Of a DNA stretch of 64,000 bases, positions 15,079 to 33,628 are shown piece after piece. Source of the stretch: Hyphomicrobium sp. (GTDB taxonomy: Bacteria > Pseudomonadota > Alphaproteobacteria > Rhizobiales > Hyphomicrobiaceae). The position numbers and the translations under genes were made by a program. How positions within the stretch are numbered: the first letter of the stretch is position 1; each line of letters begins with the position of its first letter. Below the pieces are notes generated by a model that was not told the DNA's origin, did not search any database, and saw only the letters and a program-made list of their open reading frames with translations. The stretch spans positions 7,021 through 71,020 of the forward strand of contig NZ_DATNBA010000133.1 of the NCBI RefSeq assembly GCF_035572195.1, given 5' to 3'.

Positions 15079-16461
15079 TCAGATATCGAGCGTGTTGTCA
15101 CGCTCCCACTGCGTCAGATGCGAACAATACGCGTTCCACTCGGTCCTCTTCATCTTCAGATAGGCGTTGGAAAATTCTTCGCCGAGCATCTCCTTCAGCT
15201 CTGCATCGTTGTCGAAGTTCCGAAGGGCATCGAGCAGATTGAGCGGTAGTTTCGGCGCATCCGTCACCGTATGACCGTGCTGGTACATATCGATATCGAG
15301 CCGCTTGCCGGGGTCGGCCTTTTTATGGATGCCGCTGAGGCCAGCAGCAATGATCACGGCTTGCAGAAGGTATGGATTCGCCGCGCCGTCAGGCAGCCGA
15401 AGTTCAAAGCGACCCTTGCCCGGCACGCGTACCATGTGCGTGCGATTGTTGCCCGTCCAGGTGACGGAGTTTGGCGCCCACGTCGCGCCCGAGATTGTGC
15501 GCGGCGCATTGATCCGCTTGTAGGAGTTGACGGTGGGGTTGGTGATGGCCGAGAGCGACTCGGCGTGCCTCATGATGCCGCCGAGGAAATGGTAGCCCTG
15601 CTGCGACAGGCCCATCTCATCGCTGGGATCGTAGAACATATTTGTCTTGCCGGTCTTGTCCCAGACCGAGATGTGCGCGTGGCAACCGTTGCCGGTTAGC
15701 CCCATGAACGGCTTGGGCATAAACGTCGCGCGCAAGCCGTGCTTCTCAGCAATTGCCTTCGCCATGAATTTGAAAAACGCATGACGATCTGCGGTGATGA
15801 GGCTGTCGTCGAAGTTCCAGTTCATCTCCCACTGGCCGTTGGCGTCCTCGTGGTCGTTCTGGTAGGGGCCCCATCCGAGCTCCAGCATGCAGTCGCAAAT
15901 TTCGGAGATGACGTCGAAGCGGCGCATCAGTGCCTGCTGATCGTAGCAGGACTTCGTTGCGGTATCCGCGTCGTCCGAGATCATGGTTCCGCATGGTTTC
16001 GTCAGGAAGAATTCGCACTCCACGCCGGTCTTGATATAGAGACCTTCTTTGGCCGCATCGGCCATGAGCTTCTTGAGTACGACGCGCGGCGCCTGGTCGA
16101 CGTACTTATCTTCCATCATGCAGTCGGCCGCGACCCAGGCGACTTCTTTTCTCCACGGAAGCTGGATGAAGGACGAAGGATCCGGCATGCCGAATAGATC
16201 CGGATGGGCTGGTGTCAGGTCGAGCCACGTCGCAAAACCTGCGAAACCAGCGCCATCCTTCTGCATATCGGCGATGGCCACAGCCGGAACGAGCTTTGCA
16301 CGCTGACTGCCGAAGAGGTCCGTGTAGGAAATCATAAAATACTTGATGCCGCGCTCTTTCGCCAGCGTAGCGAGATCCTGAGACATGGGCGTCTCCCCGG
16401 GGGTTTTGAGATTTTTCGCTTTTTCGGCTTCCTTAAAGATCGTTGCGAGGTCCTGAGTCAT
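15079..16461 (-). CDS. gmaS: Gamma-glutamylmethylamide synthetase (GlnT / type III GS-like); two possible starts, 16461 and 16386
   Basis: GS motifs (TGVECEFF, DHEDANGQWE, TFMPKPF, GNGCHAHIS, NRTHMVR, RFELR); directly downstream of mgsABC. Confidence 0.88.
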   Translation of the reverse strand: MTQDLATIFKEAEKAKNLKTPGETPMSQDLATLAKERGIKYFMISYTDLFGSQRAKLVPAVAIADMQKDGAGFAGFATWLDLTPAHPDLFGMPDPSSFIQLPWRKEVAWVAADCMMEDKYVDQAPRVVLKKLMADAAKEGLYIKTGVECEFFLTKPCGTMISDDADTATKSCYDQQALMRRFDVISEICDCMLELGWGPYQNDHEDANGQWEMNWNFDDSLITADRHAFFKFMAKAIAEKHGLRATFMPKPFMGLTGNGCHAHISVWDKTGKTNMFYDPSDEMGLSQQGYHFLGGIMRHAESLSAITNPTVNSYKRINAPRTISGATWAPNSVTWTGNNRTHMVRVPGKGRFELRLPDGAANPYLLQAVIIAAGLSGIHKKADPGKRLDIDMYQHGHTVTDAPKLPLNLLDALRNFDNDAELKEMLGEEFSNAYLKMKRTEWNAYCSHLTQWERDNTLDI

Positions 16462-16520
16462 GAGCATTTCCCTAGTTTTTTTGGAGAATTCTTGACTTCT
16501 TATTCAAAAAAAATCGGCGA

Positions 16521-17849
16521 TTAAAAACCGCCGTTTCCTGGAATCCATGTTGTTCCTGCCAACGGCACCCGTGCCATTGCCGCCGCTTCAAGTGTCAGGG
16601 CGACAAGATCTTCCGGCTCGAGATTGTGGACACTGTTATGTCCACACGCTCTTGCGATCGTCTGAACCTCGAGGTTCATGACTTTCAGGTAGTTTGCAAG
16701 GCGCCGACCGCCCTTGACCGCATCGAAGCGTGACATCAGTTCGGGATCCTGCGTCGTGATGCCTGCCGGATCTTTGCCCTCATGCCAGTCGTCGTAAGCG
16801 CCGGCCGTGGTGCCAAGTGCCTGGTACTCTTCCTCGTTGGCGGGATCGTTGTCGCCAAGTGCAACCAGAGCCGCGATGCCGATTGAAACTGCATCGGCGC
16901 CGAGTGCCAGTGCTTTTGCAACGTCTGCACCATTGCGGATGCCGCCCGATACAATGAGCTGCACCTTGCGATGCATGCCGAGATCCTGCAGCGCCTGCAC
17001 AGCAGGTCTGATGCACGCCAGCGTCGGCAGACCGACGTTCTCGATGAACACTTCCTGCGTTGCGGCGGTGCCGCCCTGCATGCCATCGAGCACGACAACG
17101 TCCGCGCCAGCCTTAACCGCCAGTGCAGTGTCATAGTACGGGCGCGTGCCGCCGATTTTCAGGTAGATGGGCTTTTCCCAGTCGGTGATCTCGCGAAGCT
17201 CCTGGATCTTGATCTCGAGATCGTCAGGCCCCGTCCAGTCCGGATGCCGGCAAGCGGACCGCTGGTCGATGCCCTTGGGAAGATTACGCATCGCGGCGAC
17301 GCGATCGGATATCTTCTGACCCAACAGCATACCGCCGCCGCCGGGCTTGGCGCCTTGACCGACGACGACTTCAATGGCGTCGGCTTTGCGCAGATCGTCA
17401 GGATTCATCCCGTAACGCGACGGCAGATATTGGTAGACGAGTGTCTTCGATTGCCCGCGCTCTTCAGGCGTCATGCCGCCGTCGCCGGTCGTCGTCGACG
17501 TTCCGGCGATCGAAGCGCCGCGGCCAAGTGCTTCCTTGGCATGGGCCGACAGAGCGCCGAAACTCATGCCCGCGATGGTGATCGGAATTTTGAGTTCGAT
17601 GGGCTTCTTGGCGAACCGCGTTCCCAAGACGACATTGCTGGTGCACTTCTCGCGATACCCTTCCAGCGGATACCGCGATATCGACGCGCCAAGGAAAAGC
17701 AAATCGTCGAAGTGGGGCACCCGGCGCTTGGCGCCGGCGCCGCGGATGTCGTAGATGCCTGTCTGCGCGGCGCGCCGGATCTCCGACAGCGTGTAATCGT
17801 CAAACGTCGCAGACTTACGAGGCGTCGTCGGGGGGTTATGATATGACAT
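16521..17849 (-). CDS. mgsC: N-methylglutamate synthase FMN-binding subunit (GlxD-like)
   Basis: IAGMSFGALS, TTGDGGM, GQGAKPGGGG, DGMQGGT glutamate-synthase FMN domain motifs. Confidence 0.9.
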   Translation of the reverse strand: MSYHNPPTTPRKSATFDDYTLSEIRRAAQTGIYDIRGAGAKRRVPHFDDLLFLGASISRYPLEGYREKCTSNVVLGTRFAKKPIELKIPITIAGMSFGALSAHAKEALGRGASIAGTSTTTGDGGMTPEERGQSKTLVYQYLPSRYGMNPDDLRKADAIEVVVGQGAKPGGGGMLLGQKISDRVAAMRNLPKGIDQRSACRHPDWTGPDDLEIKIQELREITDWEKPIYLKIGGTRPYYDTALAVKAGADVVVLDGMQGGTAATQEVFIENVGLPTLACIRPAVQALQDLGMHRKVQLIVSGGIRNGADVAKALALGADAVSIGIAALVALGDNDPANEEEYQALGTTAGAYDDWHEGKDPAGITTQDPELMSRFDAVKGGRRLANYLKVMNLEVQTIARACGHNSVHNLEPEDLVALTLEAAAMARVPLAGTTWIPGNGGF

Positions 17850-18535
17850 CAGTAAGCATCCGCGTTGTCGATGTTGAAGTTGTAGAGTTTGCGCGCTGAG
17901 CCGTAGCGCTTGAACTCGCTCGATTTGACGTCGGTAATTCCGGCCCGCTTCAGCAGCTTCTTGATGGCGTCATGATGCTCGGGGCGCATTTCCTTCTCGA
18001 TGCAATCGGCGCCGAGGCTTTTCACCTTTCCGCGCACGAACAACTTGGCTTCGTAGATGGAATCGCCGAGCGCATCGCCCGCGTCGCCGAGAACCACAAG
18101 GTGGCCGCTCTGCGCCATGAACGCCGACAAGTGGCCGATGTTGCCCTTGACGACGATGTCGATGCCCTTCATCGAAACACCGCAGCGCGACGCGGCGTTG
18201 CCTTCGATCAAAAGCATTCCGCCATGTCCCGTCGCGCCGGCGTATTGGCTGGCGTCTCCGGTTATCCGAACATTGCCCGACATCATATTTTCGGCGACGC
18301 CAGGTCCGGCCGATCCGTGCACGGTTATCGAGGCCTGCTTATTCATTCCTCCGCAGTAGTAGCCGACGCTACCCCGGATATTGATGTTGATCGGCGCGTC
18401 GACACCGGCAGCGACGGCGTGGAAGCCCATCGAATTGACGATCTCCCAGTCCGGCTCGTTCGTGCCCGCCGACTGGCGGTGTAGGTCTTGATTCAAATCG
18501 CGAAGGGGCGTCTTCGCTAGATCAATCTTGCGCAT
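17849..18535 (-). CDS. mgsB: N-methylglutamate synthase GXGXG subunit (GlxC-like)
   Basis: Repeated GxxG beta-helix motifs, ENMMSG; 1-nt overlap with mgsC. Confidence 0.9.
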   Translation of the reverse strand: MRKIDLAKTPLRDLNQDLHRQSAGTNEPDWEIVNSMGFHAVAAGVDAPININIRGSVGYYCGGMNKQASITVHGSAGPGVAENMMSGNVRITGDASQYAGATGHGGMLLIEGNAASRCGVSMKGIDIVVKGNIGHLSAFMAQSGHLVVLGDAGDALGDSIYEAKLFVRGKVKSLGADCIEKEMRPEHHDAIKKLLKRAGITDVKSSEFKRYGSARKLYNFNIDNADAY

Positions 18536-18557
18536 GGAGCGGTTTCCTAGATTTGTT

Positions 18558-19454
18558 TCAGCGTTCCCAGAAGTAGACGGTTGAAGGCTCCGGTTCCCAA
18601 ACCTTGGCCTTGTCGATGTCAGGCAAATTCACCAGCGCGCGAAATTCCGAGCCGAATGCAACGTACTGATCGGTTTCCGCCATGACTGCCGGCTTGCAGG
18701 CGATCGGATCGCGCAGAACGCCGAAGCCGTTCTTTGTACCAACGACGAATGTGAAGAAGCCGTCGAGATCGTCGAGGCTTTTGGTCAGAGCTTCGCCGAG
18801 GTTCATTCCCTGCTTCATGCGCGATGTGAGATAGGCTGCGGCAACCTCGGTGTCGTTTTGGGTCTCGAAGGTCATCCCTTCGCGACGAAGTTCACGGCGC
18901 AAATTGTTGTGGTTGGAAAGCGAGCCGTTGTGCACGAGGCACTGGTCGTATCCGGTCGAGAACGGATGCGAGCCGAGCGTCGTCACCGCCGACTCCGTCG
19001 CCATACGCGTATGGCCGATGGCGTGCGTACCCTTCATACCCGAAAGATCGAAGCGCTTCGCCACATCGGTCGGAAGACCGACTTCCTTGTAGATCTCGAT
19101 CGAAGCACCGGTAGCCATCACGCTCACCGAGGGGCGCAGCGCCCGGATTGCAGCCACGGCCTCGTCAGCTTTCTGCTCGGGAACCGTCAGCACGGCGTGC
19201 GTCGACTTCACCGACAAGCTGACGTTGCCGCCGATCGCTTTGGAGATCGAAGCTTCGATGTCCTTGAAGTCTGCGTCGGGATTGGGCGACTGCAATGTGA
19301 TTTTCACTTTGCCGTCGGTGGGGGTTCCATAGACCGCGAACCCAGCCGAGTCCGGCCCCCGATCACACATCGTCGTCAGCATTTGATTGGTGAGAGCGCC
19401 GAGCCGCGGTTCTAACGCTTTGTCTTTTAAGAAAAGACCGACAATTCCACACAT
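18558..19454 (-). CDS. mgsA: N-methylglutamate synthase class II amidotransferase subunit (GlxB-like)
   Basis: MCGIVG Ntn-hydrolase start, DRGPDSAG, GHTRMAT, HNG, DTEV. Confidence 0.9.
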   Translation of the reverse strand: MCGIVGLFLKDKALEPRLGALTNQMLTTMCDRGPDSAGFAVYGTPTDGKVKITLQSPNPDADFKDIEASISKAIGGNVSLSVKSTHAVLTVPEQKADEAVAAIRALRPSVSVMATGASIEIYKEVGLPTDVAKRFDLSGMKGTHAIGHTRMATESAVTTLGSHPFSTGYDQCLVHNGSLSNHNNLRRELRREGMTFETQNDTEVAAAYLTSRMKQGMNLGEALTKSLDDLDGFFTFVVGTKNGFGVLRDPIACKPAVMAETDQYVAFGSEFRALVNLPDIDKAKVWEPEPSTVYFWER

Positions 19455-19811: not shown

Positions 19812-20459
19812 CTACCTTCTTTGATAAACAATAATAGAGAGGTACGTCGCCGGAAGTTTGGTCAGCGTTTCAGGGCCGTGAAATTCGGCAGAGTCGAACA
19901 GCATGCAGTCACCCGGCTCCATGCGATAACTGTTCTCTCCGTGAAGATAGTTGACTTCGCCGGTAAGCATATAAATGAGTTCGAGACCTTCATGCCGAAA
20001 CTGCGTGTAGGGCACGGCATCCTTGCTCAGGGTGATCAGGTAAGGCTCGAAGGCGATCGTTCCGCTGACAGACTGACCTAACTGTTGGTACTCATGCCCA
20101 ACCTTCGTGCCCCTCCGTTTGATGATGGGCCCCTTGCCCTTCTTTACAAACGAGCATCCCCGACGGCCTTCGAAAGACGCGAGAAGCATTGTCAGCGGCA
20201 AATTCAGAGCTGCAGCCAGTTGATGCAAAACGGAAAGCGACGCCGAAATTTGCCCGTTCTCAATTTTTGACACCATCGCGGTTGAAATTTCGGCGGCTGC
20301 GCCGAGCTCGGAAACCGTCAGTCCGGCAGCCTTTCTGAAATCGCGCACCTGGGCGCCAATGGCATCCTCGAGGGTGCGCGCACCGGCCTCCGGAGCCCCC
20401 GATCCGGTTGCCAGAGATTTTTGCGACGGTTGAGTTTGAGGTTTAGCCTTCTGAACCAT
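19812..20459 (-). CDS. XRE-family HTH plus cupin transcriptional regulator
   Basis: IGAQVRDFRKAAGLTVSELG...SKIENGQISASL HTH; C-terminal cupin (HEGLELIYMLTG...GDCMLFDS...HG); start moved to ATG 20459. Confidence 0.9.
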   Translation of the reverse strand: MVQKAKPQTQPSQKSLATGSGAPEAGARTLEDAIGAQVRDFRKAAGLTVSELGAAAEISTAMVSKIENGQISASLSVLHQLAAALNLPLTMLLASFEGRRGCSFVKKGKGPIIKRRGTKVGHEYQQLGQSVSGTIAFEPYLITLSKDAVPYTQFRHEGLELIYMLTGEVNYLHGENSYRMEPGDCMLFDSAEFHGPETLTKLPATYLSIIVYQRR

Positions 20460-20830
20460 TCGTCGCCCATCCCGATTTTTGATTGCAACCAACGCCTTGC
20501 CCCACGCTAACGGCACCTCCCGCTTACCGCATTCGCTCAACAGCCTGAATGCAAAACTTTCAAGGCTGGGGGGCGGGGCATGAGACGTCCTTGGATAAAA
20601 AATATTTCTTGACAATGGCAGTCATCAACAGCCGGTTTGCCAACGGGCCGGCACTCCAAGTCGCCGGCGGCAAGCGGCTGCGCAAGTGACTATAACACAT
20701 TGTTTATCGAGCTAAAGGTGCTTGATCAAATCGCCTTTCTTCCGCTCGCTTCTCATTCGATGGAGGATCGTCGGACACGTCAAAAACCCGGCTACTCAGC
20801 CGCAACATTTTTTCTTTAGAAGCAAATTTG

Positions 20831-24389: not shown

Positions 24390-25337
24390 TCATTCGCCGA
24401 TCGTCAATCCGCTGATACCCGTCCCGGCCATCACCTTCCTCACGGCATCTGCGAGATCGCGCGGGATGTTTCCAAGCTCCCTGTAGCGCGCCACCATCGT
24501 CAGTTTGCGATTGATCTGGGGACCCGGCAGCCGCGCAATTTGAAGGCCTTTGCTTGAAACCTGGGATTCGGCAAAGCAAACAGGTGTCGTAATCGCAAAA
24601 CCAAGCCCGGCCGCGACCATCGCCGCGACTGCGTAAGGACTATCAAACTCGAACGAATTCGGAATATCGACGCCGAGCCGCCGTAAATGGCGTTCGATTT
24701 CCAGTCCTGTCTGCGACCGGCCGCTGAAGCGAATGAGCGGAACGGCATTGGCCAGTTTTTTGAGCTCCGAAACGCTGCGAACGGCGCCGTTCCGGCTGCT
24801 CATGAGCAGCACGTAGGGCTCCCTGAAGAGTTCCCATCTTTCAAGTCCCGGCAATTCTTCCAAATCGTCGACGCCGAGAAACAGATCGAGCCGGCGCGTT
24901 AGAAGCTCGCTCGCATGCGTGGCGGTCAGGCCGGAGAGGATCGAAACCTCATCGGCGCGCGAGGCAAGATACTGGGAGAGCGGCACGGTGAGGGCGCGGC
25001 TGAGAGAATCCACCAGTCCCACTCGGATCAACGGAACCTTGCCGTGCTTGGTCTCACGCAAGAGTGGCGCGATTTGTCGAGCATCGGCAATGAGCGCGCT
25101 TGCCCGCTGACGCATCAGTCCCCCAGCCAATGTCAGGGCCAGGGGGCGGACGGTCCGATCAAAAAGGCTGGTGCCGGTTTTCCGCTCTAGCTCGGCGATG
25201 GCAAGCGAGACCGCTGGTTGGGTCAGCCCCAGCTCGCGCGCCGCCGCCGCCATGGCTCCGGCCTCGCAAACCGCCAGGAAGATTTCTAGCGATCGCAGAT
25301 CAAACGGCAGATTGTGGGATTTGTCGCTCATCGCCAT
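24390..25337 (-). CDS. LysR-family regulator divergent from mgdABCD
   Basis: DLRSLEIFLAVCEAGAMAAAARELGLTQPAVSLAIAELE HTH; start moved to ATG 25337 (or 25331). Confidence 0.92.
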   Translation of the reverse strand: MAMSDKSHNLPFDLRSLEIFLAVCEAGAMAAAARELGLTQPAVSLAIAELERKTGTSLFDRTVRPLALTLAGGLMRQRASALIADARQIAPLLRETKHGKVPLIRVGLVDSLSRALTVPLSQYLASRADEVSILSGLTATHASELLTRRLDLFLGVDDLEELPGLERWELFREPYVLLMSSRNGAVRSVSELKKLANAVPLIRFSGRSQTGLEIERHLRRLGVDIPNSFEFDSPYAVAAMVAAGLGFAITTPVCFAESQVSSKGLQIARLPGPQINRKLTMVARYRELGNIPRDLADAVRKVMAGTGISGLTIGE

Positions 25338-25339
25338 AG

Positions 25340-25356
25340 TATAAGTAAGACTTATA
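25340..25356. promoter_or_regulatory. LysR recognition site
   Basis: Perfect palindrome TATAAGT-AAG-ACTTATA containing T-N11-A (25342-25354), between the divergent lysR and mgdA starts. Confidence 0.75.
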
Positions 25357-25418
25357 TATACTACAATCCGCCGGTCTCTAAATTCTAGGTCACAAGCTGC
25401 CGCCAAGGAGCGAATTGG

Positions 25419-26678
25419 ATGCCGACCAATCGTTACTCTATCTTTTCAGTGCTCCGCGAGACCCTGCGCGGCCACACCGGCTGGGGTCCGGCTTGGCGGG
25501 ATGCCCAACCGAAATCGGACTACGACATCGTAATCATCGGCGGCGGCGGACACGGCCTAGCGACTGCTTATTACCTTGCCAAGAATTTTGGACTGTCGCG
25601 AATTGCGGTCGTCGAGAAGGGCTGGATCGGTGGCGGCAACGTTGGCCGCAACACGACGATCGTCCGGTCGAACTACATGCTGCCCGGCAATATCCCATTC
25701 TACGAGCAGGCTTTGAAGCTCTGGGAAGGCCTCGAGCAAGACATCAATTACAACGCCATGGTCAGCCAGCGTGGCGTGCTCAATCTTTACCACTCCGACG
25801 GCCAGCGCGATGTTTTCGCCCGGCGAGGCAACGCGATGCGCATACACGGCGTTGACGCCGAACTTCTCGACGAACAAGCCGTCCGCAAGATGGTGCCGTT
25901 TCTGAACTTCGACAATGCACGCTTCCCGGTTCGCGGCGGACTGCTGCAAAGGCGGGGCGGTACGGTTCGTCATGATGCCGTGGCGTGGGGCTACGCGCGC
26001 GCTGCAGACCAGCACGGCGTTGATATCATTCAGAACTGCGAAGTGAAGGGTTTCAGGCGAGAAGGCGGCCGCGTAACCGGTATCGAGACATCCCGAGGGT
26101 TTATCGGCGCCAAGAAGATCGGAATGGCGGTCGCCGGAAACTCTTCGCGCGTCGCCGCCATGGCCGGCCTGAGATTGCCGATCGAAAGTCATGTCTTGCA
26201 GGCTTTCGTCACGGAATCGATCAAGCCGTTCATCGATGGCGTCGTGACCTTCGGCGCCGGGCATTTCTACATCAGCCAGTCCGACAAGGGCGGTTTGGTG
26301 TTTGGCGGCGATCTCGACGGCTACAACAGCTACGCGCAACGCGGCAACCTTCCGGTCGTCGAGGACGTCTGCGAAGGTGGCATGGCGCTGATGCCCCGAA
26401 TTGGCCGCGTGCGTCTTCTGCGCGGATGGGGCGGCCTGATGGATATGTCGATGGACGGCAGTCCGATCATCGACCGCACGCCGATCGACGGTCTCTATTT
26501 CAATGGCGGCTGGTGCTACGGCGGCTTCAAAGCCACCCCGGCCTCCGGGTTGTGCTTTGCGCATCTGATCGCGCGTGATGAACCTCATCCCGTCGCCGTC
26601 CCATATCGCCTCGACAGGTTCGCAACCGGACACGCCATCGACGAAAAGGGCGTGGGACCGCATCCCAACCTCCACTGA
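25419..26678 (+). CDS. mgdA: N-methylglutamate dehydrogenase, SoxB-like flavoprotein subunit
   Basis: GGGGHG FAD motif, GRNTTIVRSNY, covalent-FMN His region RHDAVAWG; mgd rather than sox assignment rests on the gmaS/mgs context. Confidence 0.85.
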   Translation: MPTNRYSIFSVLRETLRGHTGWGPAWRDAQPKSDYDIVIIGGGGHGLATAYYLAKNFGLSRIAVVEKGWIGGGNVGRNTTIVRSNYMLPGNIPFYEQALKLWEGLEQDINYNAMVSQRGVLNLYHSDGQRDVFARRGNAMRIHGVDAELLDEQAVRKMVPFLNFDNARFPVRGGLLQRRGGTVRHDAVAWGYARAADQHGVDIIQNCEVKGFRREGGRVTGIETSRGFIGAKKIGMAVAGNSSRVAAMAGLRLPIESHVLQAFVTESIKPFIDGVVTFGAGHFYISQSDKGGLVFGGDLDGYNSYAQRGNLPVVEDVCEGGMALMPRIGRVRLLRGWGGLMDMSMDGSPIIDRTPIDGLYFNGGWCYGGFKATPASGLCFAHLIARDEPHPVAVPYRLDRFATGHAIDEKGVGPHPNLH

Positions 26679-26706
26679 ACAGACTTCGACGAAAGGGCTT
26701 CGGACG

Positions 26707-27003
26707 ATGCGAATCAACTGTCCGTGCTGCGGCGAACGCGGCCTCGATGAATTCGTTTATCACGGTGATGCCTCGGTCACGCGGCCGGACGCTCTTGCTC
26801 CCGACGCGATGAACGACTTTGTCAAATATGTTTACGAGCGGACAAACACACCGGGCCTGCACCGTGAGCTTTGGTTTCACGCGGCAGGGTGCCACGCCTG
26901 GCTCGTCGTCACTCGGGGCATCGCAACCCACGCGATCACATCGGTTGAACTCGCACGCGAGGTTGCCCGCAAACGCGATCTCGTAACAGAGGAGAACGCA
27001 TGA
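26707..27003 (+). CDS. mgdB: N-methylglutamate dehydrogenase, SoxD-like Zn subunit
   Basis: INCPCCGER...EF and ELWFHAAGC Zn ligands; start ATG 26707. Confidence 0.85.
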   Translation: MRINCPCCGERGLDEFVYHGDASVTRPDALAPDAMNDFVKYVYERTNTPGLHRELWFHAAGCHAWLVVTRGIATHAITSVELAREVARKRDLVTEENA

Positions 27004-29984
27004 TGGCGTCGCAACAATATCGTTTGCCGTCGGGTGGTCTCGTCGACAGAAGCCGCACGATCTGGTTCGAGTTTGACGGCCAGAATTTTACCGGCCACCC
27101 CGGCGATACACTTGCCTCGGCGTTGCTCGCCAACGGCATCAGGCTGACCGGCCGCTCGTTCAAGTACCATCGGCCGCGCGGAATTTTGAGCGCAGGCTCG
27201 GAAGAGCCGAACGCATTGGTTGAGTTGCGCACTGGCGCGCGCCGGGAAGCCAACACCAAGTCGACGATGGTCGAGCTCTACGATGGCCTCGAAGCCTCGA
27301 GCCAGAACCGTTGGCCGTCGTTGAATTTCGACGTGATGGCGATCAACTCGCTGCTCTCACCCGTCTTTGTCGCGGGCTTCTACTACAAGACGTTTATGTG
27401 GCCGGCGGCTTTCTGGGAGAAACTTTACGAGCCCGCCATCCGCCGGGCCGCGGGTCTCGGCCGCGCATCCGATGCGGCCGATCCCGACACCTACGAGAAG
27501 GCGAATGCATTCTGTGACGTGTTGGTCATCGGCGGTGGCCCTGCCGGACTGGCGGCGGCCTTAAGCGCAGCCAAGTCTGGCGCCCGCGTGATTTTGGCCG
27601 ACGAGAATTTCGCACTCGGCGGCCGCGCCATCGACGACAACGCCCCGATCAACGACAAGGCGCCGGCCGAATGGGTGGCTGCTGTCGAAGCCGAACTCGC
27701 CGCAATGAAAGACGTGCGCATCCTGCGCCGCACGACCGTTTTCGGTACCTACGACGGCGGCACCTATGGCGCCGTTGAGCGTGTTAGCGATCATCTTGCA
27801 ACAGCGCCGTCAGGCCAGCCGCGCCAACGGCTCTGGCGCATCGTCGCCAAGCACGCGGTACTCGCTTCTGGCGCTACGGAGCGGCCGATTGTTTTCGGCG
27901 GCAATGATCGTCCGGGCGTCATGCTGGCGGGTGCGGTTCGTACCTACCTCAATCGGTATGGCGTCCTACCGGGGCAGAAAGCCGTGGTCTTCGCCAACAA
28001 TGACTACGCGGCGACGACGGTCACGGAACTCGATCGCGCCGGCGTTGAAGTCGTTGCGCTGGTCGATTCTCGCCCGCAACCGTCCGAGCTGATCAGCGGA
28101 ATTGCGAGCGCCGCCGAAACGCGGTTGATTTCGGGCGGCGTCGTTACGGACGCCATCGGCAAAAAACATGTAACCGGCGCCGTCATTCGTACGCGCAGCG
28201 GCGAAGAGGTGAAATTGGACTGCGATCTGATCGCGGTTTCTGGAGGCTGGAACCCAAATATCCAGCTGACGACGCATCTGGGCGGCAAGCCCGTTTGGAA
28301 TGACGAACTTTCGACTTTCACGCCGGGCGTGCTCCCGGCAGGTATGTCCGTAGCTGGATCTGCCGGGGGCACATTCGGGCTGAGAAGCGCTCTTGAGTTA
28401 GGCTCGGCAGCCGGCTCCACCGCGGCCACGGCGGCTGGATTCAAGGCCGCTGCAACTTCTGTTCCGCGCGCCAAGGACGAAGGCGTCAGCATTTCGCCGC
28501 TCTGGCGCGTGCCCGCGACGCGCGGCAAGGCTTTCGTCGATCAGCAGAACGACGTCACGGCGTCCGACATCGAACTGTCGGAGCGTGAGGGCTTCCGCTC
28601 CGTCGAACACTTGAAGCGTTACACGACCCTTGGCATGGCGACCGACCAGGGCAAGACCGCCAACGTCAACGCTCTCGCGATCATGGCTGAGCTGACAAAG
28701 AAGTCGATTCCGGAAACCGGAATGACGATGGCCAGGCCGCCCTATACACCGGTTGCGCTTGGCGCCTTCGCGGGACATCACCGGGGCAAGGAATTCAAGG
28801 CGACGCGTCTGCCGCCGTCTTATGCCTGGACGAAAGAGCAGGGCGGAAACGTCGTCGAAACGGGCTTGTGGCTTCGCCCAAGCTATTTCCCGCGGCCTAG
28901 TGATGCCGATTGGCTCGCATCGGTGACGCGCGAGGTCAACACTGTGCGAAGCGCAGTCGGCATTTGCGACGTCTCGACGCTCGGAAAGATCGATGTGCAA
29001 GGGGCCGATGCCGGAGCGTTCCTTGATAAGGTCTACATGAACGGCATGAAGACGCTGGCGGTCGGCAAGGCCCGTTACGGCGGCATGCTGCGCGAGGACG
29101 GCATCTTCATGGACGACGGCACCGTCGCCCGATTTGATGAGAACCATTACTTCGTCACCACCACGACGGCGAACGCGGTGAAGGTGTTCCAGCACATGCA
29201 GTATTGCCACCAGTGGCTGTGGCCGGAACTCGACGTGCACATGATTTCGGCGACCGAGCAGTGGGCGCAATATGCCGTCGCGGGTCCGAAATCGCGCGAT
29301 CTGCTGCGCAAGATCGTTGATCCCGAGTTCGATATTTCCGACGCCGGCTTCCCCTACATGAAGGTTGGGAAGATCAAGGTTTGCGGCGGCGTCAAGGCGC
29401 GTCTCTATCGGATCTCTTTCTCCGGCGAGCGCGCTTACGAGATCGGCGTTCCCGCGCGATACGGTGACTCGATGATCCGCCGGCTTATGGAAGCGGGTCA
29501 GGAATTCGGCGCATGTGCTTATGGAAGCGAAGCGCTGGGCATCATGCGCATCGAAAAGGGCCACGTCAGCGGCCCTGAGCTGAACGGCACGACGACACCG
29601 AGAGATCTGGGACTCGGCGGCATGGTCTCCACGAAGAAGGACTTCATTGGTCGCGTACTGGGAACTCGCCCAGGACTTCTCGACCCCAATCGACCATCGC
29701 TTACCGGCTTCCGCCCTGTCGATCGATCGGAACGTCTCAGATCAGGCGCTCATTTCGTCGCGCGCGACGTCGAAGTAAAGCCGAGCACCGACGACGGGCA
29801 TATGACGTCCGTCGCTTACTCCCCAACGTTGGGGCACTGGGTCGGCCTTGGCTTGCTGAAGCGTGCACCGGAGCGCCTGGGCGAAATTCTTCGCGCTTAT
29901 GATCCCTTGCGTGGCGAGGACACGCTTGTCGAAGTCATCTCTCCTTGCTTCGTTGATCCAGAAGGAACGAAAGTCCGTGGTTAG
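27000..29984 (+). CDS. mgdC: N-methylglutamate dehydrogenase, SoxA-like subunit
   Basis: GDTLASALLANG, SFKYHRPRG, GGGPAG NAD motif, EHLKRYTTLGM, C-terminal GcvT-like folate domain. Confidence 0.87.
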   Translation: MMASQQYRLPSGGLVDRSRTIWFEFDGQNFTGHPGDTLASALLANGIRLTGRSFKYHRPRGILSAGSEEPNALVELRTGARREANTKSTMVELYDGLEASSQNRWPSLNFDVMAINSLLSPVFVAGFYYKTFMWPAAFWEKLYEPAIRRAAGLGRASDAADPDTYEKANAFCDVLVIGGGPAGLAAALSAAKSGARVILADENFALGGRAIDDNAPINDKAPAEWVAAVEAELAAMKDVRILRRTTVFGTYDGGTYGAVERVSDHLATAPSGQPRQRLWRIVAKHAVLASGATERPIVFGGNDRPGVMLAGAVRTYLNRYGVLPGQKAVVFANNDYAATTVTELDRAGVEVVALVDSRPQPSELISGIASAAETRLISGGVVTDAIGKKHVTGAVIRTRSGEEVKLDCDLIAVSGGWNPNIQLTTHLGGKPVWNDELSTFTPGVLPAGMSVAGSAGGTFGLRSALELGSAAGSTAATAAGFKAAATSVPRAKDEGVSISPLWRVPATRGKAFVDQQNDVTASDIELSEREGFRSVEHLKRYTTLGMATDQGKTANVNALAIMAELTKKSIPETGMTMARPPYTPVALGAFAGHHRGKEFKATRLPPSYAWTKEQGGNVVETGLWLRPSYFPRPSDADWLASVTREVNTVRSAVGICDVSTLGKIDVQGADAGAFLDKVYMNGMKTLAVGKARYGGMLREDGIFMDDGTVARFDENHYFVTTTTANAVKVFQHMQYCHQWLWPELDVHMISATEQWAQYAVAGPKSRDLLRKIVDPEFDISDAGFPYMKVGKIKVCGGVKARLYRISFSGERAYEIGVPARYGDSMIRRLMEAGQEFGACAYGSEALGIMRIEKGHVSGPELNGTTTPRDLGLGGMVSTKKDFIGRVLGTRPGLLDPNRPSLTGFRPVDRSERLRSGAHFVARDVEVKPSTDDGHMTSVAYSPTLGHWVGLGLLKRAPERLGEILRAYDPLRGEDTLVEVISPCFVDPEGTKVRG

Positions 29985-30558
29985 CCAAACACTGGCGGCA
30001 CGCTCCGCCTTCACAAACTGGAAGCCGGTAAAGACGTCCGAGCTGGCCATTGATGTGCGCGAGACTCTGACGTTGGCGAGCTTCGCAGCCTTCAAAGGCA
30101 AGAAGGATCAACTGAAAGCGGCGATCCGCGAGCGGTATGGCGTCGATCTTCCCGACACCCCTCAGCGCGTTGAAGGCAAGGACATTGCGTTCGTTTGGGC
30201 CGGCCCGGATCAGTGGATGGCGATCGCCGAGCGCGGACAGAGCCGCGATATCGAAGTCGAGCTCAAGCCGTTGCTCGATGGTTTGAGTTCGGTCGTCGAC
30301 CAATCTGATGCGCGCGCCGTCGTTAGAATATCCGGTCCGCGTTCCAGGGATGTGCTGGCCAAGGGCGTGCCGATAGATTTGCATCCGCGCGCTTTCAAAG
30401 GCAACGGGGTTGCGATCACGCATGCCAATCACGTCGGCATCATCCTTTGGCAGATCGACGATGCCCCGACCTATGAGATCGCAATGTTTCGCGGCTTTGC
30501 CGACAGCTTCGCGCACTGGCTGCTTGAGTCGGCGGAAGAGTTCACACATCAACGGTGA
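29977..30558 (+). CDS. mgdD: N-methylglutamate dehydrogenase, SoxG-like subunit
   Basis: WAGPDQW, VDQSDAR, VLAKGVPIDLHP motifs; GTG 29977 overlaps the mgdC stop. Confidence 0.85.
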   Translation: MVSQTLAARSAFTNWKPVKTSELAIDVRETLTLASFAAFKGKKDQLKAAIRERYGVDLPDTPQRVEGKDIAFVWAGPDQWMAIAERGQSRDIEVELKPLLDGLSSVVDQSDARAVVRISGPRSRDVLAKGVPIDLHPRAFKGNGVAITHANHVGIILWQIDDAPTYEIAMFRGFADSFAHWLLESAEEFTHQR

Positions 30559-30622
30559 CCGCTTCTCTGGGTCGCGAAGCCTGTCCAACCCAGATCAAGA
30601 AAACTTCGAAAGAAATCTCGTC

Positions 30623-30979
30623 ATGACAACGCAACCCGTCACCAAGCTTCCCCCTACCGGTGAGCAGCCGATAACAACCGACCTCGAAGGATGGAAAGTC
30701 GTTTCCGGCAAGCCGACAATGAAGACGTGGATATTGAACACCTCATCGGACGGCCGAATGATATCTGGCGTCTGGGAAGCAACCCCTGGCACCTACCACG
30801 CCACATACGACAAGTATGAATTTGTCCACCTCATTGCCGGCAAGATTACGATTACACCCGATGGTGGCCAGCCCGTTCACGTGGCAGCCGGCGATGCATT
30901 CGCAGTGGAAGCCGGCTTCAAAGGTCAGTGGGTCATTGAAGAAAAAGTCCGGAAACACTTTGCAATACGCGTGGCCTGA
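30623..30979 (+). CDS. DUF861 / EutQ-like cupin
   Basis: SGVWEATPG, EFVHLIAG, GDAFAVEAGFKGQW, RKHF; start moved to ATG 30623. Confidence 0.85.
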   Translation: MTTQPVTKLPPTGEQPITTDLEGWKVVSGKPTMKTWILNTSSDGRMISGVWEATPGTYHATYDKYEFVHLIAGKITITPDGGQPVHVAAGDAFAVEAGFKGQWVIEEKVRKHFAIRVA

Positions 30980-31066
30980 GATTTCTCAGGTCCCGGCCTC
31001 GACGTCCCGCATCCTCAACCGATAACGCGGGATTCCTTCACATAACCAGCATTGGAACAGCTAGCG

Positions 31067-31639
31067 ATGACGGCAGAAAATCAGTTGCAACGACCGGGTC
31101 GAATTGGCATTCGCGTCGGAGAGGCTCTTGTCGCCGGCGGACCGCCGGGAACCGCCGCAGAACCCGAAGTCGCAATTGGCGAGATGGACGGGCCGTTCGG
31201 TACGGCGTTCGCGAACTTGCTCGGTGATCAGACGGTAGGTCACAGCCGCGTATTGGCGCTGCTCAATACCGACGTCATGGTCCGGCCGCCGACACTCTGC
31301 GTCAGCAAAGTGACGGTCACGGACGAAAGATACACCAACATTCTGATGGGTACCGTGCAGTATGCTACGGCTATGGGCGTGCTGGATGCCGTGCGCTCCG
31401 GCGACATTCCCAGGGACAAGGCCGACGAATTGGGAATCATCGTTTCGGTCTGGCTGAACCCTTCCGTGGCAACCATCAAGGATCTCGATCACAAGATCCT
31501 GTTCGACATTCATCGCAAGGCGACGACGCTGGCCATTCATAAAGCGATGGCCTTCCAGCCGTCGATCGATTGGCTGCTGGAAAACCAGGATAAGGTCATC
31601 CACAAATACTTCGAGAAGGGTCTCAAGGGAGAAATTTGA
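31067..31639 (+). CDS. fae: Divergent formaldehyde-activating enzyme (Fae) paralogue
   Basis: VGEALV, TAFAN, KVT, AMGVLDAVRSGDIP.D.ADEL.IIVSVW match the Fae family; canonical AHIDL is AEPEV here. Confidence 0.8.
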   Translation: MTAENQLQRPGRIGIRVGEALVAGGPPGTAAEPEVAIGEMDGPFGTAFANLLGDQTVGHSRVLALLNTDVMVRPPTLCVSKVTVTDERYTNILMGTVQYATAMGVLDAVRSGDIPRDKADELGIIVSVWLNPSVATIKDLDHKILFDIHRKATTLAIHKAMAFQPSIDWLLENQDKVIHKYFEKGLKGEI

Positions 31640-31777
31640 GACGCGCGCAATCGCTCGGCGTTTGTCGGGTGATTGGGTCAACGCGTCGATGAACGAAAGA
31701 ACTTCGCATGTAATCTCCGGCTCAACGATTGGGCCGGAGATGATTTTAAGCCGCGAAATGCCTGGGTTTTCCGGCAG

Positions 31778-32170
31778 CTAGGGGCGGTTTTGCAAGCCTG
31801 CTGCTACGGCGCGAAAATGCCTCATTAATTTCTTGCCGACATCCTTGTCCAAGCCGACGCGGTCAATGGCGATGGACATGCAATTCAACCAATCGTCGTG
31901 GGCCTTCCGGTCGATCTCTATATGCACGTGCATTTCCCGTACGTTCGTGTGGCCGTGTTTTTCGGCATACAATTTCGGACCACCGAGAAAGTCGGACAAG
32001 AAAGCGAATTGCTCGATCCTCGAATGGGCAACACCCATTCCTCTGAGATGCAGCATTTTGAGATCCGTGCCCTCGGGCTCGAACTCGATGACGTCATAAA
32101 AAGTCTCGACTAGGTTTCGAAGACCAGTTTCACCTCCAACAAGTGCATAGAGCGACGTATTCCCAGACAT
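31778..32170 (-). CDS. Group II truncated hemoglobin
   Basis: LY..VGG, FY (B10 Tyr), FLGGPKLY, REMH (proximal His), DW (G8 Trp). Confidence 0.9.
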   Translation of the reverse strand: MSGNTSLYALVGGETGLRNLVETFYDVIEFEPEGTDLKMLHLRGMGVAHSRIEQFAFLSDFLGGPKLYAEKHGHTNVREMHVHIEIDRKAHDDWLNCMSIAIDRVGLDKDVGKKLMRHFRAVAAGLQNRP

Positions 32171-32173
32171 TTC

Positions 32174-33628
32174 TCATTTTCCTCCTGGCGCATGATTGGG
32201 CTTGCGGCGGTCGCGGCTGACAAGGTCAGTGCGAAACGCGCACGCCCGGGGCACGTGATCGCGGCTGGAGATGACCACGATCGGCACGCTTCGGCCCGGA
32301 TGGGTCGAGCCTTCCGTCTCGCAATCGACGCGAACACTTCCCAAATGCGACGGTAGTGCCGTGTTGCTCCATTCGCCCGCGATAAAACTGTCGAAGTCGT
32401 GGCCGTTCTCGATGCCGCCCGCCATAGCAACGAGTTCGTCTACCGTCCGCCCCGCGGCGGCTTTGTAGACGCCGGGCGAGATGACGCGGCCGGCGATCGA
32501 ATACAACATCGGAGCGCCGTCGACGTCGCCATCCTGGCCGCAAAAACTGTCGATCCCCATGGACAGAATTTCAGGGATCCAACGCAACAATTCGGGCCGA
32601 ACGAGAAGGACCGAGGCAGGCGTTAGCGACGCCGCTTCACATCTTTGCGTTTCGCCCGCCCTTCTTTGTAGCGAGCTGCGGCACAAACTTTGGAGGAGGT
32701 GAACGTCATCGCTGTGGGTGTCCGGTGAAAATTCCGAAAAGGTGAAGCTGACATGGCGATCGAAACCGTAGGCGCTGAGTACCGTCAATTCTCGTTCGAG
32801 GCTGCACCGCAATGACGAGTACCGGTTGTTGCAATGAACAAGGATCTCCGGCGCACCAATGATCAAAGCCGTTATCAGCAGGCCCTCGAGCACCGAATGT
32901 GTATGGCGCTCGATAAGGTAAGTTTGGCTCATGACGCCCGGCGGCGCGTCGTCAACGAGCAGCAGAAGCTTGGCGACATCCCCCGTGTCGCGGAGCTCCC
33001 GCATCCGAATACCGATCGAAAGCTTCTCGCCTTCAAACGAGGCCAACGGCAATGCAGACAGCGCAGAAACGATGCTCTCGATGGAACGTCGCTTGGCGAG
33101 GCAACTCTTGAGAACGCCGTATCCGCCCGCATTCGTGTACGAGGAAAAGGTTTCTTGGCTCGAATCGGCGGCCTGTCCATCGCTATCGGCGTTCACCGTT
33201 CCGCCGTCGATGGCACCCGATATGACATCGTCGCCGATCGCCGCGACAGGCGCCATCCAGCAGCGGGCCATGCACGTTTCGCGAATGACGCGATGTCCCG
33301 ATCTTGCTGAAGTGATCTCATCACAAAATGCTTCGGCGCCGGCGAGAGCGCAGGGAAGCCCGACACACACCCTGATCGGAGCAGGATTTCGTTTGTCGGC
33401 GACGTTGTCCCGATCATCCATTGAGCCGCTTTTTACGGCCGCGCAGGGTTCTTCATCGTCGGCATCGATTAATGCGGATATTTCATAGCCCGGTATGTAA
33501 CCGCGCCAGCTCTGAATACTGCGCAACCATTCCGGTAGATTGTGGCACGACCTAAAGTTCAAACGCTGAGAAGCAGAAGGCACACCTTCATCATTCATCA
33601 CTAGCGAAAGGTCGGGTATGCTCACCAC
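32174..33628 (-). CDS. Degenerate NuoE-NuoF fusion (formate dehydrogenase beta-subunit-like)
   Basis: CVGLPC...CMARC [2Fe-2S] ligands, AGGY, LEGLLI, YSIAGRV..PGV SLBB region; FMN/NADH loops and the [4Fe-4S] domain are missing. GTG start with GGAG RBS. Confidence 0.75.
   Translation of the reverse strand: MVSIPDLSLVMNDEGVPSASQRLNFRSCHNLPEWLRSIQSWRGYIPGYEISALIDADDEEPCAAVKSGSMDDRDNVADKRNPAPIRVCVGLPCALAGAEAFCDEITSARSGHRVIRETCMARCWMAPVAAIGDDVISGAIDGGTVNADSDGQAADSSQETFSSYTNAGGYGVLKSCLAKRRSIESIVSALSALPLASFEGEKLSIGIRMRELRDTGDVAKLLLLVDDAPPGVMSQTYLIERHTHSVLEGLLITALIIGAPEILVHCNNRYSSLRCSLERELTVLSAYGFDRHVSFTFSEFSPDTHSDDVHLLQSLCRSSLQRRAGETQRCEAASLTPASVLLVRPELLRWIPEILSMGIDSFCGQDGDVDGAPMLYSIAGRVISPGVYKAAAGRTVDELVAMAGGIENGHDFDSFIAGEWSNTALPSHLGSVRVDCETEGSTHPGRSVPIVVISSRDHVPRACAFRTDLVSRDRRKPNHAPGGK

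Follow-up and report, generated by a model that had tools for sequence, protein, structure and literature searches.

This report concerns a gene in a 64,000-nucleotide stretch of Hyphomicrobium sp. DNA (the window), which lies 3' of the mgdABCD genes for N-methylglutamate dehydrogenase and encodes a paralogue of the formaldehyde-activating enzyme, Fae. We find that this gene belongs to the Fae3 clade, which is known, widespread and uncharacterised, and that it is not a one-off variant. Judged by their aligned sequences, the proteins of this clade appear to have a re-specified active-site cleft rather than a decaying site. Their genes adjoin genes of the N-methylglutamate (NMG) pathway in at least four different arrangements, a link that is real and recurrent. 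The reading that we tentatively prefer is that Fae3 may be an enzyme linked to tetrahydromethanopterin (H4MPT), with remodelled acid catalysis, that brings amine-derived one-carbon (C1) units into the H4MPT pool.

M. extorquens PA1 and M. universalis cannot grow on methylamine without H4MPT, although the predicted product of the NMG pathway is methylene-tetrahydrofolate (methylene-H4F) (PMC5023235). The route by which NMG-pathway carbon enters H4MPT-dependent oxidation is an acknowledged gap. Inventories of methylotroph genomes have listed Fae2- and Fae3-type proteins for years (PMC4109929, 2014), and the Fae3 clade itself, its induction by methylamine and its proposed role as a shuttle were already known; the functions of the non-canonical Fae groups were stated as unknown in 2024 (PMC11748545). 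What is new here is the repeated placement of fae3 beside methylamine genes in unrelated bacteria, a fresh clue to its role. The comparative evidence gives Fae3 a concrete, testable place at the junction between the NMG pathway and H4MPT. This placement rests on the operon fusion with mgdD, carriage with mgs and gmaS genes on a conjugative plasmid, the flanking of betaproteobacterial NMG clusters, confinement to H4MPT genomes, and the conserved, re-specified cleft. Hyphomicrobium, in which fae3 is found inside the operon, offers a better genetic system than those used so far, and the automatic label "formaldehyde-activating enzyme" on members of the Fae3 clade is an over-call.

Identity and active site of the Fae paralogue

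31067..31639, plus strand: fae3, Fae3-type paralogue of formaldehyde-activating enzyme, 190 aa (PF08714, E 1.8e-56, 191 bits against a cut-off of 27)

The gene starts with the ATG at 31067, TTG codons at 31052 and 31082 being alternative starts. The PF08714 match, which covers profile positions 1-158 of 159, places the product in the Fae family, and the NCBIfam equivalog TIGR03126 is reached at the borderline, over its cut-off of 118.05 by merely 0.25 bits (118.3 bits). The same genome encodes a canonical Fae (Fae1) with the segment VAHIDLLIG on another contig (C43, L001), among open reading frames (ORFs) of the H4MPT type, and this protein scores 224 bits against PF08714. The window gene sits after mgdD and not, as a canonical fae would, among H4MPT-pathway genes.

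When aligned by HMMER to Methylorubrum Fae (PDB 1Y5Y), the segment AAEPEVAIG stands opposite VAHIDLIIG, with Glu32 in place of His22 and Glu34 in place of Asp24. An earlier note on this DNA, made from the sequence alone, had claimed the change of histidine to glutamate; the alignment bears this out and adds the replacement of the aspartate. In 17 canonical Fae sequences His22 is 100% and Asp24 94% conserved, whereas the Glu/Glu pair is found in 100% of 106 clade members. In the description of the Fae structure, His22 was reportedly proposed as the acid catalyst, and Gln88 and the C-terminal arm are said to have been given roles; a literature search on His22 and Asp24 gave nothing relevant. Compared with Fae1 of Methylorubrum extorquens AM1 (1Y5Y/1Y60; EC 4.2.1.147), the window protein is about 31-33% identical and has the same fold, but in addition to the two glutamates it carries 15 further clade-fixed differences, insertions of two and five residues, and a longer conserved C-terminal arm. 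Both proteins belong to H4MPT-containing bacteria, and the window protein is predicted to self-associate through an interface of the Fae kind, a prediction qualified below.

The rest of the Fae fold is kept, as the earlier note had held: 28 positions, including Gln88, are invariant in both canonical Fae and the clade, and the AlphaFold2 (AF2) model of Fae3 (pLDDT 91.3, pTM 0.87) superposes on 1Y60. Foldseek matches this model to 1Y60/1Y5Y with E 1e-17, TM 0.81/0.90-0.93 and rmsd 1.7 Å. Self-association is predicted by a three-copy model, which scores 0.82 against 0.00 for the best of three controls, with contact agreement of at least 93% and partner pLDDT of at least 86 across runs; the modelled interface takes in residues 32, 34, 94-96 and the C-terminal arm, 165-190. 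Of the proteins solved as one-chain pairs, 20 of 30 came up to the mark applied, as did one of 23 solved as single chains; the Fae3 job differed from this calibration in its three copies and its own alignment, and the pass may reflect likeness to the solved Fae pentamer rather than independent proof. Fae3 would appear to be an ancient, slowly evolving Fae paralogue that has kept the fold of the family, its subunit interface and Gln88, and that has a longer conserved C-terminal arm.

The Fae3 clade and its sister clade

A pattern scan over one genome per prokaryotic species yielded at least 561 relatives. The best 80 of these are 72-93% identical to the window Fae3 and belong to Alpha-, Beta- and Gammaproteobacteria, the beta- and gammaproteobacterial copies being 72-79% identical. 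Carriers among the best 80 include Hyphomicrobiaceae, Methylocella, Methylobacillus, Novimethylophilus and other Methylophilaceae, as well as Methylococcaceae, Thiotrichaceae, Ectothiorhodospiraceae and many gammaproteobacterial metagenome-assembled genomes (MAGs). A homologue search from a Methylococcaceae copy found the clade in Methylococcales methanotrophs; one representative homologue search returned mostly fragments, with about 30 full-length rows usable.

In the 106 clade sequences the motif AAEPEV, with Glu32 and Glu34, is invariant, and mean pairwise identity is 79% across classes. At 17 positions canonical Fae and the clade are each fixed, but for different residues; among these are H22E, D24E, F84M, P86T, A87V, F119W, H121N, N134H and Y135R, along with eight others. 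The residues gained at Fae1 Asn134 and Tyr135 are His149 and Arg150 of the clade. Six of the changes (H22E, D24E, F84M, F119W, N134H and Y135R) would make up the re-specified cleft. Because 17 positions are fixed differently while 28 are held in common, and because the substituted positions are themselves invariant, the site is best described as re-specified. A reading of the clade as a degenerate pseudo-enzyme was rejected, since these positions are not drifting.

In a maximum-likelihood tree, the clade that holds the window gene (EPE) has 99% support and its sister clade (AMPE) 98%; the two together (96%) stand apart from bacterial and archaeal canonical Fae. The non-canonical nature of the paralogue, which the earlier note had suspected, is thus confirmed by the phylogeny as well as by the replacement of His22 and Asp24. 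Within the AMPE clade falls the one Fae-family gene found on the plasmid of M. aquaticum 22A to which fae2 is assigned by its locus tag (Maq22A_1p31155; PMC7356819). Among 71 sampled Methylophilaceae genomes, 63 have the AMPE type and 34 the EPE type, and a published inventory covers nine Methylophilaceae, all of which have fae2 and four of which have fae3 (PMC4109929). As this contrast between a near-universal and a sporadic type fits the published table, we equate AMPE with Fae2 and EPE with Fae3. The published Fae3 proteins (FAM5 METUNv1_700516, 20Z MEALZ_RS07105) are likewise distant Fae homologues of sporadic occurrence in Methylophilaceae, and they share with the window clade its presence in Methylococcales and a link to methylamine, which is one of induction in the published work and of synteny here. 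The window fae3 is physically joined to the mgd operon, with a cupin gene inserted, whereas FAM5 fae3, judged by gene numbers, lies outside the NMG cluster.

The Fae2 type, represented by fae2 of Methylobacterium aquaticum 22A (pMaq22A_1p) and universal in the inventoried Methylophilaceae, is 36-44% identical to the window Fae3 and shares with it an x-Pro-Glu signature (AMPE against AEPE). It too is without His22, having Met at position 22, so that the loss of this histidine is not special to the window gene. Unlike Fae3, Fae2 keeps Asn134 and Tyr135, as does Fae1. In about 11 small Methylophilaceae genomes (1.5-2.6 Mb; G128, G139, G143, G147, G149, G151, G154, G170, G179, G183, G193), a Fae2-type protein, 39-41% identical to the window Fae3, is the only Fae-family match, and canonical Fae was not found in these genomes; a published remark describes one Methylophilaceae ecotype as having no "true" Fae. 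Since Fae2 without His22 is the sole Fae there, these genomes suggest that His22 is possibly dispensable for the function of the family.

Like fae3, fae2 is found beside the gene of a methylated-amine enzyme with a GcvT-like domain. In three Hyphomicrobiaceae (L053, L054 and L055 in G003, G109 and G054; e.g. L054:973-8528) a Fae2-type gene follows directly 3' of tmoP, a dmmC-like gene, tmm (trimethylamine monooxygenase, 744 bits) and tdm (trimethylamine N-oxide demethylase, 1191 bits), with fhcD and fhcC 5-6 kb on. With these tmm-tdm-fae2 loci set beside mgd-fae3, both non-canonical Fae clades neighbour amine demethylases that have GcvT-like folate domains.

Genomic neighbourhood of fae3

Only four of the 21 Hyphomicrobiaceae orthologues, the window gene included, lie 3' of mgdD, the remainder being found among unrelated genes such as bioA/fabH, ubiB or an aldo-keto reductase gene. 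The loci of the best 80 relatives provide six more cases of mgdABCD-fae3, one of which duplicates an earlier locus, for a total of nine Hyphomicrobiaceae genomes. In three relatives the fae3 ATG comes 18, 24 and 33 nt after the mgdD stop, each with a GGAG-type ribosome-binding site, and it is near-certain that in these relatives fae3 is operonic with mgdD. Methylobacterium sp. DM1 has a copy that is 69% identical on its conjugative plasmid pLVM1, as part of an mgsA-mgsB-mgsC-gmaS-fae3-globin block that is bracketed by insertion sequence (IS) elements. In 11 Methylophilaceae genomes fae3 is located 1.4-11 kb from mgsC in two layouts, either downstream of mgdABCD-gmaS-mgsABC or upstream of an XRE regulator and mgdA. 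The two-by-two table of Fae3 and MgsC in Methylophilaceae reads 24/10/9/28, where kinship would inflate any test; MgsC is missing from 10 of the 34 Fae3-bearing genomes.

Across the 80 loci, a search for a universal conserved neighbour found none, only lineage-level synteny with housekeeping genes (cyclic nucleotide monophosphate (cNMP)/rhodanese, DUF520, ApbE, PHP, bioF/bioB and shikimate dehydrogenase), and no shared promoter or regulatory motif was visible upstream of the 21 Hyphomicrobiaceae orthologues. The earlier note had inferred a dedicated module of mgd, cupin and Fae that hands on the C1 unit released by Mgd. Such a module is rejected, as at least 561 species genomes carry Fae3, mostly as a stand-alone gene, and the cupin gene occurs at none of the other mgdD-fae3 junctions. 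The part of the claim that ties this Fae to the C1 unit of Mgd fares better, in view of the recurrent genomic link with the NMG pathway and the induction in FAM5.

Several other genes were seen next to fae3. A truncated globin gene (PF01152) lies directly beside it in three different arrangements. The two genes are convergent in the window and in Hyphomicrobium sp. LHD-15 (L042/L078; G100/L078), and co-directional, with an 85-nt gap, on pLVM1 (L060:12625-13032); in two Methylophilaceae the globin gene comes after dmmB. Homologues of the XRE regulator of the window are found directly beside fae3 in alpha- and betaproteobacteria (L077:8624-9274, L095:5725-6333, L098:1696-2442, L156-L158). In seven Methylophilaceae loci, a neighbour of fae3 encodes a member of the N-formylglutamate amidohydrolase family (PF05013, E 1e-72 to 1e-75); the two genes often share a strand and are then about 50 nt apart:

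L133:8715-9536, PF05013 gene by fae3
L135:8587-9360, PF05013 gene by fae3
L157:13297-14097, PF05013 gene by fae3
L158:4365-5168, PF05013 gene by fae3
L160:4307-5080, PF05013 gene by fae3
L161:2501-3274, PF05013 gene by fae3
L163:14210-14986, PF05013 gene by fae3

A HutD-family gene stands between the PF05013 gene and fae3 in two genomes (three loci), and neither the window nor the alphaproteobacterial loci yielded a copy of the PF05013 gene. Four Methylophilaceae NMG clusters (L154:8552-9310, L155, L164, L161) have, between mgsC and fae3, a class-I glutamine amidotransferase/peptidase C26-like gene, which could encode a gamma-glutamyl-amide hydrolase.

Cofactor

The H4MPT pathway was sought in 40 Fae3 carriers outside the Hyphomicrobiaceae, with Mch as marker and with bacterial control genomes. 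Mch is present in 37 of the 40 carriers and in no bacterial control genome. One of the three carriers without Mch has fhcB-fhcA-fhcD-fhcC right beside fae3, and markers of the pathway are thus found in 38 of 40. Fae3 is therefore essentially confined to H4MPT-pathway genomes. As tetrahydrofolate (H4F) is universal and the clade occurs almost only with the H4MPT pathway, this argues against a folate-only role and disfavours H4F as the carrier, which the earlier note had considered possible.

In the Methylococcaceae MAG UWMA-0325 (L130:7992-13930), the next gene after fae3, on its strand, belongs to a PurN-like folate formyltransferase family (TIGR00639, 144.9 bits, below the cut-off of 150.1), and the locus converges with fhcC-fhcD-fhcA-fhcB. 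No second case of this kind was seen in the examined loci.

Proposed function and alternatives

Methylamine induces fae3 of M. universalis FAM5 11.7-fold, and the authors of that study proposed its product as a candidate shuttle of C1 units from H4F to H4MPT, on the ground that H4MPT is needed for growth on methylamine though the NMG pathway should give methylene-H4F (PMC5023235). According to the reading that we prefer, fae3 would be expressed together with mgdABCD in this Hyphomicrobium-type methylotroph, and Fae3 would act on the C1 unit freed by N-methylglutamate dehydrogenase and load it onto H4MPT for oxidation to formate. The C1 source might be formaldehyde in free form, methylene-H4F that arises on MgdC at its GcvT-like domain, or a carbinolamine or imine of glutamate. 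The acid for opening or closing the imidazolidine ring would be a carboxylate (Glu32/Glu34) instead of His22.

One may speculate further on this model. Fae3 would move a formaldehyde-level C1 unit into the H4MPT pool without free formaldehyde, from methylene-H4F or an N-methylene- or N-hydroxymethyl-glutamate product of Mgd, with Glu32/Glu34 as an acid pair and Arg150/His149 holding the carboxylate-bearing donor. In methanotrophs it would run in the reverse direction and give CH2=H4F for biosynthesis, while the cupin or HutD protein, with the product of the N-formylglutamate-amidohydrolase-family gene in Methylophilaceae, would clear glutamate-bound C1 side products. In this full form we regard the model as unlikely.

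A number of observations weigh against our preferred reading. Deletion of fae3 in FAM5 leaves growth on methylamine and methanol normal (PMC5023235), and deletion in M. alcaliphilum 20Z has no phenotype (PMC11748545). Most fae3 copies stand alone among unrelated neighbours, and in Hyphomicrobiaceae Fae3 does not track MgsC, which is present in 17 of 29 Fae3 carriers (and so missing from 12) and in 11 of 22 non-carriers that have Fae1. We know of no biochemical activity for any Fae3. Since methanotroph carriers are generally without the NMG pathway, the core function of Fae3 must exceed the use of methylamine. Two carriers (G207, 5.5 Mb, and G226), of assembly completeness not established, have neither Mch nor FhcD. 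The equation of the EPE clade with the published "Fae3" is a probable one, drawn from distribution without a named reference sequence, and in the window a single transcript from mgdA through fae3 is plausible, a co-transcription that we infer from the spacers described below.

Could Fae3 simply be an ordinary second formaldehyde-activating isozyme, in which Glu32 takes over the acid role of His22 to condense formaldehyde with H4MPT and give extra detoxification during amine oxidation? Its fold, Gln88 and the 28 shared invariant positions would fit, as would its co-occurrence with the H4MPT pathway; moreover, Fae2 without His22 is the sole Fae of some small Methylophilaceae, a family whose named members keep the H4MPT pathway (PMC4109929). 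However, fae3 of M. alcaliphilum 20Z does not complement the fae1 deletion of AM1 and does not relieve its methanol sensitivity (PMC11748545), from which it follows that fae3 is not simply a second fae1, and in FAM5 a fae1 deletion is lethal on C1 substrates despite the presence of induced fae3 (PMC5023235). The 17 positions fixed differently from Fae1, including the gained His149 and Arg150, point to a changed substrate or partner rather than to redundancy, and we consider the isozyme improbable. The lack of a growth phenotype in the knock-outs (PMC5023235, PMC11748545) would be easier to understand if Fae3 did no catalysis and served instead, as a sensor or a regulatory subunit, to signal the state of formaldehyde, H4MPT or C1 supply. 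Fae-like proteins have been suggested to act as sensors (PMC3728764, PMC11748545), an XRE-type regulator adjoins fae3 at the loci named above, and conservation as extreme as that of the clade is often seen in partner-constrained proteins. Yet Fae3 has no signalling or DNA-binding domain, there is no constant regulator partner and most loci are without any, the residues of the cleft show no degeneration but have been re-specified and do not vary, and fae3 is tightly coupled to enzyme genes (mgdD and the N-formylglutamate-amidohydrolase-family gene). A sensor is therefore a rather doubtful proposition.

The earlier note had offered H4F as a possible acceptor, which would make Fae3 an H4F-specific formaldehyde-activating enzyme (HCHO + H4F -> CH2=H4F). 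The neighbours MgdC, DmmC and Tdm all have GcvT-like folate domains, the PurN-like gene of the Methylococcaceae MAG lies 3' of fae3, and carboxylate acid catalysts are typical of folate enzymes. Nevertheless, the restriction of the clade to H4MPT-pathway genomes would be hard to reconcile with a universal cofactor, and the folate-mode proposal for M. alcaliphilum was modelled for fae1-2 and not for fae3 (PMC11748545), so that we hold this alternative to be very unlikely.

The mgd operon and the surrounding window

The window is DNA of a Hyphomicrobium-type methylotroph with NMG pathway genes on both strands; its proteins find their best matches in MAGs of Hyphomicrobium and Methyloceanibacter. 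The features around fae3 and the cupin gene are:

15079..19454, minus strand: gmaS-mgsC-mgsB-mgsA (TIGR03105 type III glutamine synthetase-like, 671 bits; GltB-like, GXGXG and amidotransferase subunits)
19812-20615: XRE-type regulator, upstream of mgsA
24390..25406, minus strand: LysR-family regulator, divergent from mgdA (PF00126 and PF03466)
25419..26678, plus strand: mgdA, soxB-type beta subunit of N-methylglutamate dehydrogenase (TIGR01373, 709 bits against a cut-off of 529)
26575..27003 (ORF as listed), plus strand: mgdB, soxD-type delta subunit (PF04267 SoxD, ORF residues 46-125)
27000..29984, plus strand: mgdC, soxA-type alpha subunit with GcvT-like folate-binding domain (TIGR01372, 1366 bits; PF01571 GCV_T, E 1.4e-64)
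29977..30558, plus strand: mgdD, soxG-type gamma subunit (PF04268, TIGR01375; GTG start, 8-nt overlap with the mgdC stop)
31713..31750: 13-bp GC-rich hairpin, then GAUUUUAA, between the convergent fae3 and globin genes (RNA fold of 31636-31780)
31778..32170, minus strand: truncated (bacterial-like) globin, convergent with fae3 (PF01152, E 1e-21)

All four soxBDAG models match in the order B-D-A-G, and these sox-type genes are named mgdABCD because they cluster with gmaS and mgsABC, which lie 6 kb upstream. The true start of mgdB is probably near 26710. An Eat-like permease cassette occupies the plus strand between the XRE regulator and the divergent LysR gene, and the divergent pairing of lysR with mgdA recurs at six other loci (L036, L042, L049, L070, L077, L078). 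Beyond the globin gene, a NuoF-like gene and a dmm operon are likewise convergent with the mgd-cupin-fae3 genes.

The spacers measure 64 nt between mgdD and the cupin gene and 87 nt between the cupin gene and fae3, and neither was found on inspection to contain a hairpin followed by a U-tract. The 145-nt spacer 31636-31780 folds at -62 kcal/mol (z = -3.75 against shuffled controls), and its hairpin at 31713-31750 is likely a bidirectional terminator. A single transcript from mgdA to fae3 is thus plausible, with a terminator-like hairpin 3' of fae3 and none in these two spacers. A sigma-70 scan of 25000-32400 found no promoter, though in this organism such a scan carries no information. Upstream of the terminator-like hairpin, another long imperfect one (31640-31687, 12-bp core stem) abuts the fae3 stop.

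Sox-type operons often continue with folate genes, and the earlier note had seen a cupin and a Fae gene in their place; indeed, there is no purU or folD 3' of the mgd operon in the window. The whole genome (G000) has one FolD and two FtfL matches, and a search of it for PurU gave nothing that passed the family cut-off of 286 bits, the best match having 103.9. Because of this, oxidation by FolD and PurU of methylene-H4F derived from the sox-type enzyme is unavailable in this genome.

The cupin gene

30623 (ATG)..30979 (stop), plus strand: Cupin_3 (DUF861/EutQ-like) protein, 118 aa (PF05899, E 9.7e-22, 76.9 bits against a cut-off of 23.5)

The presence of this gene and of the Fae paralogue (PF08714) 3' of the mgd operon, on the same strand, agrees with the earlier note. 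The protein has its best PDB match in 3BCW, an uncharacterised protein (E 6.8e-13), and from its sequence it has no HxH metal motif, with a single His at that place. The cupin gene is absent from all eight other mgdD-fae3 junctions and is a lineage-specific secondary insertion between mgdD and fae3, not a fixed partner. Its relatives are found elsewhere: orthologues 47-49% identical terminate dmm operons in two Hyphomicrobiaceae, copies 50-57% identical stand divergently beside fae3 in two Methylophilaceae, and a 34%-identical copy lies 3' of fae3 in a Methylocella MAG. The cupin gene thus belongs to methylated-amine gene islands. In this it differs from the solved Cupin_3/DUF861 relatives (PDB 3BCW, TM1112), which it resembles by the PF05899 and 3BCW matches and which are without known function; the window cupin and its own relatives are tied to such islands, of which the protein may be an accessory, small-molecule-binding component.

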